A stretch of DNA of 64,000 nucleotides, from the NCBI GenBank assembly GCA_964355175.1, contig CAYHBZ010000002.1, forward strand, positions 268,537 through 332,536, in the 5' to 3' direction. Both the position numbers and the translations under genes were made by a program. The stretch comes from an uncultured Gammaproteobacteria bacterium. Its GTDB lineage: Bacteria; Patescibacteriota; Patescibacteriia; Magasanikbacterales; GWA2-37-8. This document shows positions 1,367 through 60,140 of this stretch, one piece after another (position 1 is the first letter of the stretch; each line of letters opens with the position of its first letter). Below the pieces are notes generated by a model, which did not search any database, was not told the origin of the DNA, and was given only the letters and a program-made list of their open reading frames with translations.

Positions 1367-1431
1367 TTTTCTTCCAATCTCGACTATAGACCACTTTCGT
1401 TGGTGGTCGTGGTGTTTGAGAAAGTGAAGTC

Positions 1432-1620
1432 CTATTGAGTAGGTGTGTCAGTAGACTTGCGCCGTACCGGAATTGTCATTTTGTCACCTTCAGGCACGTA
1501 GGTCGCTTCGGGGACGGACTCGTACCGAGGATGTTTTTCTAGCCACCTTTCCACCGCCTTCACCCAGTGTTCGTTTGGTAGGAGCTTGATTTCAACCCAC
1601 CTAGTGTATCCCACCATCTT
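1432..1620 (-). CDS. small G+C-rich ORF (62 aa, MVGYTRWVEIKLLPNEHWVKAVERWLEKHPRYE...), hypothetical
   Basis: Strong SD (AAGGAGA) 6 nt upstream of ATG on the minus strand. GC-rich codons in an AT-rich context. Stop TAG. Lies next to palindromic element copy 1. The 90-aa ORF-track version was trimmed to the SD-supported start. Confidence 0.4.
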   Translation of the reverse strand, partial: KMVGYTRWVEIKLLPNEHWVKAVERWLEKHPRYESVPEATYVPEGDKMTIPVRRKSTDTPTQ

Positions 1621-1814
1621 TATCTCCTTGTTCAATGGTTGATATCCGCATAAAATGCGGGCATATAACCAAATGAACAATTTATAATAGCACATTGGCG
1701 GCAAGTGTCAATATAGACTATGTGAAGTTGACATTTTAAATAGAAATCATTAAGATATAATTATTAAATTTAACTACCCCCTAGGTATAAGTGACCAAGG
1801 GGCTTTTGTATTTT

Positions 1815-4364
1815 ATGCAAGAAAAAATTGTTATTAAAGGCGCGCGTGAGCACAATTTGAAAAATATTTCGCTGGAATTGCCGCGAAATAAGATGATTGT
1901 GTTTACCGGTTTGTCGGGTTCCGGCAAGTCTTCTTTGGCGTTTGATACTATTTTTGCCGAAGGTCAGCGTCGCTATATCGAATCTCTGTCGGCCTATGCC
2001 CGACAATTTTTGGGCGGTATGCAAAAACCGGATGTCGATGAGATCGATGGACTGTCACCGGCTATTTCTATTGATCAAAAAGCGCACAGCGCCAATCCGC
2101 GCTCTACTGTAGCCACTATCACCGAAATTTATGATTATCTTCGTGTGCTTTTTGCGCGCGTGGGTCGTCCGCATTGCCCGGAATGTGGTACAAAAATAGA
2201 TAAGATGACTACGGATGAGATGAAGGATCAGATAGAAAAAAGATTAAAAGCGGAAAAAAATAAAAAAGGGGAGTTGGTAATTTTATCCCCGGTAGTGCGT
2301 GGCCGCAAAGGCGAGTATTATCAGATGCTCTACGATATGTATAACTCCGGTTTTATGGAAGTGCGTGTGGATGGCAAAATGCATTCGCTCAAAGAACGCA
2401 TTCTTTTGTCCAAAAATAATAAACACACTATTGAAATCGTAGTAGATAAAATTCCAGCCGATAAAATTGATGATCAACGCCTGGGTGAAGCGATAGAAAA
2501 ATCGGTGGGTCTTAGCGATGGTCTGACCACCGTAATTTATCCTGACAAAGAAGAATCAATTTATTCTACGCTATATTCTTGTCCCAACGACGGTTTTAGT
2601 TTTCCGGAAATTGAGCCGCGCCTTTTTAGTTTCAACAGTCCATATGGTTATTGTGAAGCGTGTACTGGTCTGGGAACTCGAGAATTATTTAGTACTGAAG
2701 AGTGTTCGGTATGTCATGGAAAACGTCTCAATAATACCGCGCTCAGTGTGAAGGTAGATAATAAAAATATTTTTGAAGTAAGTCAGATGAATATCGGCTA
2801 CGCGCGTGAATGGGTCGCATCGCTGGAACAAAAGACAGCGGAAAAAGAATTGGAAATTTCCGGTGCGGTGCTGAAAGAAATTTTCAATCGTCTGCAGTTT
2901 ATGTTTGATGTTGGTTTGCATTATCTTACAATGGATCGCAAAGCCGGCACATTGTCTGGTGGTGAAGCTCAGCGTATTCGCCTCGCTTCGCAGGTGGGCA
3001 CACGCTTGGTGGGTGCTCTGTATGTATTGGATGAGCCGACTATTGGTCTGCATCAGCGCGATAATGATCAGCTGGTCCGTACTTTGCGTAATTTATGTGA
3101 TGTTGGAAACACAATTATTATTGTTGAACACGATGAAGATACAATTCTGGAAAGTGATTGGATTGTAGATTTTGGTCCTGGTGCCGGTAAGCATGGTGGG
3201 GAAGTGGTATTTTCCGGGCCAACCAAAGTGTTACTCGGTGAACAAAAAAATGCTAAAGAATTTTTTGGATGTAAAGTAATGGGCGATCCACATAAATCCC
3301 TCACCGGAAAATATTTGCGTCGCGAGGTGCAAATTGCTGAACCAAAAGATTATCGTAAGGTGGATAGTGCTACACCAAAATTAAAAATCAAAGGTGCTCA
3401 CGAACATAATTTAAAAAATCTTAGTGTAGAAATTCCTTTGCGCCGTTTTGTTTGTCTGACCGGTGTTTCCGGATCCGGCAAATCTACTCTTATGCATGAT
3501 ATTTTGCGTCAGTCGGTGGTGAATAAAATGTTTCGTTTGGATAAACCGGTAAAAGTGAAAGAAATTACCGGTACGGAATATTTGGATAATTTGATTACAA
3601 TTGATCAGGGCGCTATTGGCCGTACTTCTAGATCCAATCCAGCCACCTATACCAAAGCATTTGATCAAATTCGTGATCTCTTCGCCTCCACTCCGGAAGC
3701 GCGTATTCGTGGTTTTAAATTGGGCAGATTTAGTTTTAATGTAGCAGGGGGTCGCTGTGAAAATTGTGAGGGTAAAGGGATGATTGAAATTGAGATGCAC
3801 TTTTTGCCAAGTGTGGAAGTGGTGTGTGAAGTTTGTAAAGGTAAAAGATTTAACCAAGAAACTTTACAGGTATTTTATAAAGATAAAAATATTGCCGATA
3901 TTTTGGCAATGACAATTGAAGAAGCAGAAGAATTTTTTAAAGATATTCCGATGATTTATGACAAGCTAAAAATTCTCAATGAAGTGGGATTGGACTATCT
4001 TACTCTTGGTCAGAGCGCCACCACGTTGTCTGGTGGTGAGGCTCAGCGTATCAAATTGTCACGCGAATTGGCCAAACACGGCACTACGAAAACTCTTTAT
4101 TTGCTTGATGAGCCTACTACCGGTCTACATTACGACGATGTTCGTAAATTATTGGTAGTGTTACAAAGATTGGTGGGGCAGGGTAATAGCGTGCTCGTAA
4201 TTGAACACAATTTGGATATTATAAAATCCGCTGATTGGCTGATAGATTTGGGCCCCGAAGGGGGAGACAAAGGCGGTCAATTGATCGCTGAAGGCACTCC
4301 GGAAGAAGTGTCCAAAAAAGGATTGAGTTCCACCGGCCATTATTTGAAAAGAATTTTGAAATAA
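1815..4364 (+). CDS. uvrA: excinuclease ABC subunit UvrA
   Basis: Two ABC ATPase modules (GLSGSGKSSLAFDTI; GVSGSGKSTL), signature LSGGEAQR twice, Zn-finger cysteines CPECG and CENCEGKG. Start taken at MQEKIVIKGAREHNLKN; the alternative ATG at 1791 is 8 codons upstream. Stop TAA. Confidence 0.95.
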   Translation: MQEKIVIKGAREHNLKNISLELPRNKMIVFTGLSGSGKSSLAFDTIFAEGQRRYIESLSAYARQFLGGMQKPDVDEIDGLSPAISIDQKAHSANPRSTVATITEIYDYLRVLFARVGRPHCPECGTKIDKMTTDEMKDQIEKRLKAEKNKKGELVILSPVVRGRKGEYYQMLYDMYNSGFMEVRVDGKMHSLKERILLSKNNKHTIEIVVDKIPADKIDDQRLGEAIEKSVGLSDGLTTVIYPDKEESIYSTLYSCPNDGFSFPEIEPRLFSFNSPYGYCEACTGLGTRELFSTEECSVCHGKRLNNTALSVKVDNKNIFEVSQMNIGYAREWVASLEQKTAEKELEISGAVLKEIFNRLQFMFDVGLHYLTMDRKAGTLSGGEAQRIRLASQVGTRLVGALYVLDEPTIGLHQRDNDQLVRTLRNLCDVGNTIIIVEHDEDTILESDWIVDFGPGAGKHGGEVVFSGPTKVLLGEQKNAKEFFGCKVMGDPHKSLTGKYLRREVQIAEPKDYRKVDSATPKLKIKGAHEHNLKNLSVEIPLRRFVCLTGVSGSGKSTLMHDILRQSVVNKMFRLDKPVKVKEITGTEYLDNLITIDQGAIGRTSRSNPATYTKAFDQIRDLFASTPEARIRGFKLGRFSFNVAGGRCENCEGKGMIEIEMHFLPSVEVVCEVCKGKRFNQETLQVFYKDKNIADILAMTIEEAEEFFKDIPMIYDKLKILNEVGLDYLTLGQSATTLSGGEAQRIKLSRELAKHGTTKTLYLLDEPTTGLHYDDVRKLLVVLQRLVGQGNSVLVIEHNLDIIKSADWLIDLGPEGGDKGGQLIAEGTPEEVSKKGLSSTGHYLKRILK

Positions 4365-4397
4365 AAAAATCCCCGAATTAATCGGGGATTTTTTTAT
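4365..4397. terminator. bidirectional rho-independent terminator (atccccgaattaatcggggat + T-run) shared by uvrA and the LysE gene
   Basis: Perfect 8-bp GC-rich stem, A-run upstream, T-run downstream. Confidence 0.7.
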
Positions 4398-59388: not shown

Positions 59389-59413
59389 TACTTTCAAAAA
59401 ATAAAATCCCTCG

Positions 59414-59446
59414 ATGAATTTCGGGGGATTTTTTTATTGACAAAGA
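59414..59446 (+). terminator. rho-independent terminator after rplL
   Basis: atccctcgatgaatttcgggggat + T-run. Confidence 0.6.
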
Positions 59447-59592
59447 TCAGTAATTAATTTAGGCTATTAGTTATGTTTGTTCTTTTTATCTGTTGGAGTG
59501 GGGAATAATGATTTAATTTTATTGAATTTTTATTTCCTGCTCCAACTGTTGGTTGTTGGTAAAGGGGTGTCAGTTCATCGGGGGTGGACAGG

Positions 59593-59985
59593 ATGAAGAA
59601 GCTTCTTCGGTGTGAAAATTGTGGTGAAGAACGCCAGCACCACGACGTCAGGAGTGATATCTCGCGTGGTAGTAGGGCGACTGCTGTTTTCGCTTGCGAT
59701 ACCTGCAAGCAGGAGCAGGGGCCGATCGCCGTGAGTAAGGATGAGCTTATGGGTCGTCCGCCGCCGTCGGAGGTGCGCTTCCACTGTGAAGACTGCCAGA
59801 CCACTAGTGATCATCGTGTCACGACGATCTGGCGCGGCCATGTGCGGGCCACGATCGTGCTCCATTGCACCGAGTGCAATCGCGAGGCGCGTCGGCAAGC
59901 CCCCGTGGACGAGATTCCTCAGGTATTCCTGGATCTCGAGCCCAAGCCCAAGGCGGCTGGCGAAGAAGTGGTGTCGACGGCCTAG
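59593..59985 (+). CDS. G+C-rich small protein with two tandem zinc-ribbon modules (4 x CxxC)
   Basis: CENC...CDTC and CEDC...CTEC with an evident internal duplication (RCENCGEERQHHDV...RATAVFACDTC versus HCEDCQTTSDHRV...RATIVLHCTEC). GC-rich codons, stop TAG. A GTG 3 codons upstream is also possible. Confidence 0.5.
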   Translation: MKKLLRCENCGEERQHHDVRSDISRGSRATAVFACDTCKQEQGPIAVSKDELMGRPPPSEVRFHCEDCQTTSDHRVTTIWRGHVRATIVLHCTECNREARRQAPVDEIPQVFLDLEPKPKAAGEEVVSTA

Positions 59986-60140
59986 GCAGCCTTGAGCCAA
60001 CCCGCAACCTCTGTGCACGGCAGAGGAAATTTAACAACCAAAGGGTTCCCAGCTGGTAGATGGGAACAAGGAAGGTGGCGACCGTTCGTGCACGGTCGCA
60101 ACTTCTAATGTATATAATTAGTTGTATTCATTAAAAACAA

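Follow-up and report, generated by a model that had tools for sequence, protein, structure and literature searches.

Single genes that travel or persist as units of their own are known from several systems. A phage moron is a single gene that brings a promoter and a terminator of its own, is lodged between two genes of a conserved block, deviates in composition and often does not follow the orientation of that block; horizontally acquired hot-spot islets combine atypical G+C content and codon usage with sites between conserved operons, differences in presence, absence and cargo, toxin-antitoxin neighbours, and orphan or secreted cargo; integron cassettes are one-gene units with an imperfect palindrome and diverse orphan cargo. 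Here we describe six gene-sized G+C-rich islets (islets 1–6, with open reading frames [ORFs] I1–I6) scattered over a 64,000-nucleotide stretch of contig CAYHBZ010000002.1 (positions 268,537 to 332,536 of the forward strand; this whole stretch is called the window below). An XseA scan places the host genome in Candidatus Magasanikbacteria, a lineage of the Candidate Phyla Radiation (CPR)/Patescibacteria.

By analogy, these islets seem to behave like morons or single-gene hot-spot islets, and look superficially integron-like in one relative (locus L090). They share with morons the autonomous promoter-gene-terminator unit, although they lie not in a phage or prophage but in a cellular chromosome, among uvrABC, ribosomal protein, tRNA synthetase and glycolysis genes, and have no viral homologues; a phage origin was rejected after four viral-contig scans and a PHROGs search gave nothing meaningful, and PADLOC matched no defence system. 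They share with hot-spot islets all the traits just listed, including toxin-antitoxin neighbours of the AbiEii and MazF types. Unlike these, however, several are ancient, syntenic, vertically inherited and unameliorated, their cargo families are limited to the recipient lineage, no tRNA, integrase or repeat marks their boundaries, and they occur lineage-wide at about one per 13–20 kb; their G+C content persists and even rises in one lineage (L025), which is not the course of ordinary acquired islets. With integron cassettes they share the one-gene format, an imperfect palindrome, diverse orphan cargo and, in L090, a tandem pair with a repeated 3' module. Unlike cassettes, they are scattered rather than arrayed and have their own promoters, and neither an attC-type conserved core at the 3' end nor IntI with a common promoter beside an array was found in the 64-kb window. 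Looked at as palindrome-associated elements of the IS200/IS605 type, the islets have hairpins, whose sequences differ between islets save for the 3' module of I1 and I2, and the 64-kb window encodes no TnpA.

We favour, with a probability of about 0.55, the reading that the islets belong to a lineage-specific pool of G+C-rich accessory genes that are swapped in permissive slots and whose composition is actively maintained. The original prediction, made from the sequence alone, had taken them for repeated single-gene acquisitions from high-GC donors; it was partly right (foreign-like composition, variable slots, one myxobacterial-type cargo) and wrong in equating composition with recent acquisition. 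The closest relatives found by the XseA scan are Candidatus Magasanikbacteria metagenome-assembled genomes from deep lakes and groundwater (76–91% protein identity). Further loci, designated by L numbers below, were gathered by a UvrC scan, and all were aligned to the window; the relatives were thus compared over loci fetched around two syntenic regions, and all sequences are metagenomic.

Composition and slots of the islets

Islets were called by log-odds segmentation as maximal-scoring G+C-rich segments of the window, and the same segmentation was used for all fetched loci. The mean G+C content of the window is 0.404, and neither G+C nor G+C at third codon positions (GC3) is uniform along it. 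Five segments stand out: 5097–5369 (0.59), 14150–14742 (0.61), 44792–46142 (0.58), 57013–57935 (0.575) and 59564–60099 (0.60). Six segments of 55–65% G+C had been predicted; five are clear islets at 55–61% against the 40% of the window, whereas the sixth, at 1.38–1.70 kb, reaches only about 52% (peak of about 0.515–0.52 over 1418–1615), stays below the segment score and is a marginal islet. The deviant composition by which horizontally acquired islets are recognised is accordingly found in five islets and marginally in islet 1. The predicted preference for G/C-ending codons and TAG or TGA stops was borne out: GC3 is 0.55–0.78 in the islet genes against 0.387 ± 0.065 in 49 backbone ORFs (z = 2.5–6.0), and none of the six islet genes ends in TAA, against 41 of the 49 backbone ORFs (Fisher p = 1e-4). 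Relative synonymous codon usage correlates among the islets (r = 0.63–0.72) and not with the backbone (r = −0.15 to 0.03), and the islets are compositionally foreign. Codons ending in A are shunned (TTA 0, AAA 0.19, GTA 0.05) while GGT, GCT and CGT stay common; frequent use of these three is atypical for genomes of 65–70% G+C. Third-position spectra form a graded series, from A3 of 0.03–0.05 and T3 of 0.06–0.11, as on a myxobacterial-type contig, to the nearly backbone-like I4 of L088. Four of the six islet genes are read from the minus strand, whereas 42 of the 49 backbone ORFs are read from the plus strand (p = 0.011).

The enrichment covers whole transcription units. Islet untranslated regions (UTRs) have a G+C content of 0.50–0.64, against 0.335 in other non-ORF DNA, and beyond the unit ends no more than about 100 bp are needed for G+C to return to the background level, adjoining genes being unenriched. 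Read directly, the sequence holds one convincing ORF per islet, as had been proposed. Of the strong Shine-Dalgarno sites announced for every islet, those of I1 (AAGGAG), I2 (AGGAG), I3 (AAAGGAGA), I4 (GGGAGG) and I5 (GGAGG) were recovered, whereas the ATG of I6 is preceded only by a weaker G-rich stretch ending in GGACAGG. The islets are indeed bracketed by hairpins, their flanking UTRs folding better than dinucleotide shuffles (z = −1.9 to −8.3), and promoter-like sites lie just outside the G+C-rich blocks. A sigma-54-like TGGCAC motif near three islets was dropped, as it lies on the wrong strand and the −12 element is absent. Structured RNA genes were rejected as an identity for the islets: Rfam gave no match in any islet at the gathering score or at E ≤ 0.5, and its hits in the rest of the window were limited to the L10 leader and one tRNA. 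The Shine-Dalgarno sites, a frame-specific excess of GC3 over G+C at second positions and, for I5, matches to Pfam and NCBIfam are signs of coding, and the islets are protein-coding monocistronic transcription units. Assembly chimerism was likewise rejected for I4 and I6, which recur with identical genes and neighbours in several independent assemblies: the exact I4 protein with the same neighbours is found on a 463-kb contig of the European Nucleotide Archive and in Logan assemblies of three other runs, and the exact I6 protein with the same neighbours in three assemblies. A 953,736-bp contig on record carries I3 and I4.

The islets occupy intergenic gaps between conserved genes, as predicted, and the contents of these slots vary among relatives, being empty, filled or filled with other cargo. 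The proposed neighbours hold for I2 (LysE/uvrC), I3 (rpmE/rpsB), I4 (MazF/HisKA_7TM kinase), I5 (an amino-acid-kinase, pyrH-like gene/L10 leader and rplJ) and I6 (rplL/a 746-aa membrane protein); for I1, the pair uvrB/uvrA had to be amended, since an AbiEii toxin gene stands between I1 and the uvrB 3' end further upstream, with uvrA on the other side. The pyrH-like|rplJ slot contains I5 in the window and in L171, is empty in L009, L012, L172 and L179, and holds unrelated G+C-rich genes in L006, L014 (two) and L015, AT-rich genes in L005 (0.37 G+C) and L010 (a 5-kb insert of about 0.35), and in L007 an unrelated gene of about 0.47 that fails the islet segmentation. The rplL|membrane protein slot is occupied in L172 and L179 as in the window; it is empty in L005, L007, L014 and L015, and L009 and L010 have a 120-bp structured element there instead. 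At rpmE|rpsB, I3 of the window corresponds to another G+C-rich gene in L092, to empty slots in L091 and L094, and to a 292-bp gap without islet in L090; upstream of uvrC, I2 corresponds to another membrane-protein gene in L092 and to two tandem G+C-rich genes in L090. The idea that the six genes form one dispersed system does not agree with their phyletic patterns, which differ: I4 is universal in relatives whose loci reach its slot, I6 is patchy, I5 rare, I3 confined to this genome (I3, I5 and I6 are thus patchily distributed, and I4 is not), I2 has a syntenic homologue, and I1 is absent from the fetched loci. Islets number 7.8 per 100 kb in the window and 4.8–5.7 in Magasanikbacteria relatives, whereas the Saccharibacteria loci have 0.8, those of other CPR 1.4 and those from outside the CPR 0.2; this density in the lineage, 4 to 40 times that of the comparison sets, is indicative only, as it comes from fetched syntenic loci.

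Age and replacement of the islet genes

Islet 4 (44752–46147, plus strand) extends from a TATAAT-like box (44752–44757) to an intrinsic terminator (46112–46147) and encodes I4 (44821–46077; 418 aa, TAG stop), a putative acyl-thioester reductase-like Rossmann enzyme. In every locus that reaches the slot, down to 41% identity, I4 has ArgRS on one side, accompanied by MazEF or not, and the HisKA_7TM kinase on the other. Its pairwise identities rise and fall with those of this kinase (r = 0.96; 41–69% in I4 where the kinase has 58–81%), which marks I4 as vertically inherited, at about 1.6 times the protein rate of the kinase; it is older than the divergence of the sampled relatives and not a recent import. 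The same gene with similar composition thus sits at the same locus in all of these relatives, which contradicts the recent import originally envisaged; for I6, I5 and I2 a same-locus gene of similar composition is found in part of the relatives as well. A search of 5.8 billion proteins by word index detected 64 homologues of I4, all from Magasanikbacteria/Patescibacteria where named, and no non-CPR member of the family.

The G+C contents of I4 and its flanks are 0.58/0.35, 0.51/0.35, 0.58/0.35, 0.64/0.36, 0.56/0.35, 0.60/0.33 and 0.42/0.29, and I4 was found 12–26 points richer than flanking DNA (I4 0.42–0.64; flanks about 0.29–0.40). Four-fold degenerate sites are near saturation in I4 and in backbone genes alike (32–47% identical), and GC3 in I4 is still 0.45–0.76 in six of seven lineages, the seventh, L088, having 0.30 against 0.18 in its backbone. 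By our own estimate, the GC3 excess of I4 should have shrunk roughly ten-fold since the deeper splits under the substitution process of the backbone, and it did not. When synonymous changes were polarised by parsimony with two outgroups, GC-to-AT and AT-to-GC changes were balanced in the window (11/8) and L010 (9/7), pointed to decay in L009 (14/4) and L085 (15/0), and to a rise in L025, the sister of L085 (2/14). These polarised changes are suggestive of a gene that is not simply ameliorating.

The structural model of I4 (mean predicted local distance difference test [pLDDT] score 91.8) consists of an N-terminal domain and a Rossmann NAD(P)-binding domain, as in acyl-ACP reductase (AAR) and TAD thioester reductases, with Foldseek matches to 9e56 and 6jzq (E = 3e-16 to 1e-14, template-modelling score 0.57–0.73) and profile matches to the PigE N-domain (1e-5) and AAR (0.03). 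The family alignment shows a GANGAIG nucleotide-binding motif, invariant Cys302 and Cys336, and a nearly invariant Cys285. The fold (template-modelling score 0.65–0.72), the Rossmann glycine motif and invariant cysteines are shared with cyanobacterial AAR and the TAD thioester reductase of carmabin biosynthesis. I4 differs from these in having only about 15% sequence identity to them, no gene for an aldehyde-consuming partner, and constant pairing with a seven-transmembrane (7TM) histidine kinase. From the model and the synteny we infer that I4 may be an NAD(P)H-dependent acyl-thioester reductase tied functionally to the adjacent 7TM kinase. A MazF-type toxin pair (44143–44719) adjoins the islet.

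Islet 6 (59437–60112, plus strand) begins with a TTGACA box (59437–59442) and encodes I6 (59593–59985; 130 aa, TAG stop), probably a small cytoplasmic protein with two CxxC...CxxC zinc ribbons. A single-sequence search of 1.8 billion representatives returned seven homologues and no family member outside Magasanikbacteria/Patescibacteria; the high-GC donor that had been suggested was found in these searches for neither I4 nor I6. The two homologues that could be located occupy the same slot and are G+C-rich (0.53 against 0.36 in L172, 0.55 against 0.41 in L179). L179 resembles the window closely in rplJ (98%), rplL (96%) and the membrane protein (85%), but its I6 allele is only 32% identical, while that of the more distant L172 reaches 44%; I6 is thus 32–44% identical where rplL is 86–96% identical, and in the close relative L005 the slot is empty. 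The scaffold around these alleles is conserved: the −35 box is kept in all three loci, and a three-hairpin element of the 3' UTR (60007–60112) is about 85–90% identical, with compensatory pairs in L172 and L179, although the proteins share 32–44%. Its role could be that of a functional RNA or of a scaffold for recombination. The comparison shows that alleles have been replaced within a conserved scaffold at this slot and have not diverged gradually. Hypervariable or balanced-allele loci, such as those of surface antigens and immunity proteins, similarly show diverged alleles between conserved flanks (here with UTR scaffolds) and allele relationships that conflict with the backbone; unlike their products, I6 is predicted to be a small cytoplasmic double zinc-ribbon protein.

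Two further structures were observed at this slot. A leader hairpin (59491–59546) of about 25 bp with an AT-rich apex (z = −6.8) lies between the TTGACA box and the ribosome-binding site, is conserved in L172, where it shows compensatory changes, but is missing from L179; a role in regulation or processing is possible. In L009 (13975–14090), L010 (18985–19095) and L172 (4660–4840), and not in the window, a conserved element with the core 'ttttcgc...gcgaa.ggc...ataacccgctcaaaag' is nested in the stem of the post-rplL terminator; it fills the position of the window's I6 slot, coexists with an I6 homologue in L172, and has no match in Rfam.

Islet 5 (57013–57975, minus strand) comprises a structured 5' leader (57880–57975), I5 (57142–57879; 245 aa, TAG stop) and a 3' UTR with a terminator hairpin (57040–57070). 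I5 has an N-terminal hydrophobic segment and a Cys-rich region that matches Pfam Stig1 (1e-13; 51.8 bits, above the cut-off of 24.1) and NF041328, the MXAN_6577-like cysteine-rich proteins (97.7 bits, E = 5.6e-28, against a curated cut-off of 100). Named homologues, 27–40% identical, belong to Labilithrix and other Myxococcota, and one that is 33% identical lies on a 71% G+C contig; I5 alone seems, by sequence, to point to a high-GC source, that of myxobacterial Cys-rich proteins. It shares with the MXAN_6577-like/Stig1 proteins of Myxococcota a like repeat pattern of cysteines, but it is shorter (245 against about 400 aa), no more than 45% identical to anything outside its orthologue pair, and set at 57% G+C in a CPR genome rather than in the roughly 70% G+C of the Myxococcota homologues. 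The two nearest homologues, at 75% and 44% identity, come from short contigs whose flanks are AT-richer, and Myxococcota follow only at 27–40%. The 75% one is the L171 orthologue, which has the same 3' hairpin; this hairpin also recurs in L007, where the ORF is unrelated. The exact I5 protein had no match in the look-up, probably because the gene caller chose another start. A strong promoter-like site (58182–58210, minus strand; TTGACA-17-TATACT with TG) diverges from the rplJ promoter upstream of islet 5, and a terminator-like hairpin (58073–58049) stands between it and I5, so that the transcript from this site might be a short RNA or an attenuated leader. Its twin (14874–14902, minus strand), which diverges from the rpsB promoter (14951–14979) upstream of islet 3, is almost identical: TTGACAAAAC...TGCTATACT.

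The other three islets are also on the minus strand. Islet 3 (14078–14805) has a promoter-like site (14805–14778), a structured 5' leader (14659–14775), I3 (14272–14658; 128 aa, TGA stop), a structured 3' UTR (14140–14271) and a hairpin at about 14078–14103. I3 carries an N-terminal hydrophobic segment and a C-terminal Cys-rich tail, and a word-index search of 5.8 billion clusters found only I3 itself; both it and I5 are probably exported or membrane-anchored Cys-rich proteins. Islet 2 (5042–5470) has a weak promoter-like site (5470–5442), I2 (5170–5400; 76 aa, TGA stop), and a G+C-rich 3' UTR with a hairpin (5106–5169). Islet 1 (1299–1711; G+C about 0.52) has a promoter-like site (1711–1684), I1 (1432–1617; 61 aa, TAG stop) and a hairpin (1389–1408). 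I1 and I2 are small ORFs, without a match in the family libraries, and probably encode small cytoplasmic proteins; I2 has a syntenic homologue in L090 (28% identical), and I1 has no match in the fetched loci, no wider search having been made. The cargo is the one originally listed: I3 and I5 are Cys-rich and begin with a hydrophobic segment, I6 is a double zinc-ribbon protein, I4 a Rossmann protein, and I1 and I2 are small ORFs. A long palindromic module lies 3' of I1, I2 and related cassettes, with copies at 1299–1374 and 5042–5118 of the window (about 92% identical), at 7835–7912 and 8526–8603 of L090, and at 2651–2725 of L092. It has A5/T6 flanks and 26 consensus pairs, four with compensatory double changes, and is probably a bidirectional terminator; in L090, the module and an adjacent small hairpin (about 100 nt in all) are almost identical after each of two unrelated tandem genes.

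Between the uvrB 3' end and uvrA, beside islet 1, an AbiEii-type toxin gene (627–1292) follows a 68-aa ORF (442–648); with the MazF genes beside islet 4, it indicates that the variable slots also gather toxin-antitoxin genes. In the uvrC ORF (5399–6757), similarity to the UvrC of relatives starts only at residue 35–50; translation probably begins near 5520, and the part of the ORF before this point would be an artefact caused by the adjoining sequence. A 2404-aa ORF (17105–24319), of which the first 1000 residues were scanned and contain Big_5 (bacterial Ig-like) domains, has a C-terminal part of 0.46–0.49 G+C and probably encodes a giant surface protein.

In relatives, ten islet proteins were submitted to the protein collection and seven were found there. 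The 90% clusters of these seven hold Magasanikbacteria proteins only, and recent donors were rejected for them. Homologues lying closest in a donor lineage, rather than in the relatives of the recipient, were not found for I4, I6, I5 or these seven proteins. In 43% G+C genomes, an NhaA Na+/H+ antiporter gene is found at L103 4300–5502 (GC3 0.91) and L106 15731–17020 (GC3 0.74); it is the clearest recognisable housekeeping-type gene among the G+C-rich islets of the lineage, the other islet genes of relatives being orphans. Between L102 and L104, the UvrC proteins are 83% identical and the syntenic islet proteins 37%, both with GC3 of 0.89–0.90.

Maintained composition, import or mobility

In the reading that we favour, the slots (uvrC upstream, rpmE|rpsB, pyrH-like|rplJ, rplL|membrane protein and MazEF|histidine kinase) would be permissive landing sites at operon boundaries and hot spots of gene turnover across the lineage. 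Each unit would follow one plan, an AT-rich promoter, a structured G+C-rich leader, the ORF, and a structured G+C-rich 3' UTR with terminator, and its cargo would be drawn from a pool limited to the lineage, made up of genes that evolve fast, are mostly orphans and share one G+C-rich codon usage, many of them Cys-rich or with N-terminal hydrophobic segments. Members of the pool may have entered at different times, some ultimately from high-GC bacteria (the I5 type and, plausibly, the NhaA of relatives), and would then have been retained, lost or passed between relatives through homologous recombination, for which the conserved flanks and UTR scaffolds would serve. A gene-specific force, either selection at the level of mRNA or translation or biased repair, would keep their G+C content high. 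Composition does not appear to be the residue of recent import, because I4 is ancient and vertical and I6 has deeply diverged alleles, yet both are G+C-rich. As to the force itself, G+C-biased gene conversion spreading from recombination tracts is judged unlikely, because the borders are sharp at the transcript ends (a drop within about 100 bp, with unenriched flanking genes), and codon selection alone is disfavoured because the UTRs are G+C-rich and highly structured as well; we lean to selection at the mRNA level, for structure, stability or translation rate. Avoidance of endoribonuclease motifs by islet mRNAs was also considered, as MazF lies beside I4 and AbiEii beside I1, and rejected when a 3–5-mer test against dinucleotide shuffles revealed no strongly avoided AU-type motif.

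Several points weigh against this reading. No mechanism of G+C maintenance was found, the motif-avoidance test being null, and neither a recombinase in the window nor a conserved end sequence accounts for the entry of genes into the slots. The word-index (I4, I3) and single-sequence (I6) searches might miss distant high-GC relatives; I1, I2 and I3 are known from DNA sequence alone; the polarised counts of I4 are small, and parsimony is biased at nearly saturated sites; the density contrast comes from loci around two syntenic regions rather than from whole genomes; and a continuous third-position series would equally result if imports had been staggered and had then ameliorated in the ordinary way.

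A conventional explanation still suffices for part of the pattern, namely independent imports of single genes from high-GC donors, possibly the host of an episymbiont, with G+C content measuring the time since import under passive amelioration. We consider this account unlikely, and keep it as the foremost alternative because the graded series of spectra does fit staggered imports and decay. The foreign codon usage common to the islets, the presence/absence polymorphism of I3, I5 and I6, the myxobacterial family of I5 with its distant homologue on a 71% G+C contig, and the islets of relatives with GC3 of 0.85–0.91 and third-position spectra like those of true myxobacterial genes, one of them NhaA, all agree with it. 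Against it stands an I4 that predates the radiation of the clade, co-diverges with its neighbour, keeps its GC3 excess in six of seven lineages (0.45–0.76) despite near-saturated four-fold sites, and gained G+C in one lineage. Moreover, I4 and I6 have no non-CPR members among 5.8 and 1.8 billion proteins, no donor lies within 90% identity of the seven islet proteins of relatives, and the frequent GGT, GCT and CGT are unlike typical 65–70% G+C genomes.

A dedicated site-specific or hairpin-dependent mobility system, integron-like or of the IS200/IS605 palindrome-associated type, with the hairpins as its sites, is improbable. Stable hairpins do bracket every islet, the 3' palindromic module is common to I1 and I2 and repeated after the two unrelated tandem genes of L090, and different ORFs stand between conserved scaffolds at the I5 and I6 slots. 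On the other hand, a 9-mer enrichment over 44 islets gave no border motif beyond promoter and terminator signals, the 64-kb window encodes no integrase, transposase, HUH enzyme or other recombinase, the A5/T6 flanks of the module are those of a bidirectional terminator, the cassettes are scattered with their own promoters instead of arrayed, and I4 has been immobile over the whole depth of the clade.

Even less probable is a native origin in which weak constraint lets the islets drift to a G+C-rich mutational equilibrium while selection holds the backbone AT-rich. The much faster evolution of islet proteins than of their neighbours (I4 against the kinase, I6 against rplL) and a four-fold GC3 (0.33–0.56) above overall GC3 in most tested backbone genes speak for such drift; yet other poorly conserved inserts in the same slots are AT-rich (0.37 in L005, about 0.35 in the 5 kb of L010), the remaining non-ORF DNA is the most AT-rich class (0.335), sister lineages shift G+C in opposite directions, and I5 has clear homologues in high-GC bacteria. 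Finally, that the islets are artefacts (chimeras, contaminant fragments or structured non-coding RNA genes misread as ORFs) is very improbable and already largely refuted, for although chance ORFs are long on several frames of G+C-rich DNA and metagenomes are the source of all sequences, the same junctions occur in independent assemblies from different runs, the syntenic backbone resumes on both sides, orthologues stand at the same sites in other species, the ORFs have coding signatures and I4 a confident fold, and Rfam gives no matches.

Meaning for Magasanikbacteria

Detectors of horizontal gene transfer that rely on composition would label all six islets recent imports. Since I4 is older than the divergence of the relatives and I6 has deeply diverged alleles, deviation in G+C content would be no clock in CPR genomes. 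The islets form a dense lineage-specific reservoir of fast-evolving proteins, which are plausible candidates for host interaction, and the myxobacterial affinity of I5 may be a weak yet testable lead to donors or hosts. I4, G+C-rich in an AT-rich genome and with sisters drifting in opposite directions, offers a small natural experiment on selection versus biased conversion.

A further proposal, which we advance tentatively and hold to be rather unlikely as a whole, is that Magasanikbacteria keep a special class of genes 15–25 points above the genome in G+C content through a gene-specific force acting on entire transcription units, UTRs included, a force that would persist past synonymous saturation and could even increase the G+C content of some lineages. 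Selection might favour mRNAs that are highly structured, long-lived or translated differently, or repair or conversion with a G+C bias might be targeted to these genes. If this were true, composition would not indicate foreign origin but would set apart genes of one functional class, which evolve fast and possibly act at the host interface, and the question of what selects for G+C content in bacteria would have a natural testing ground in this system.

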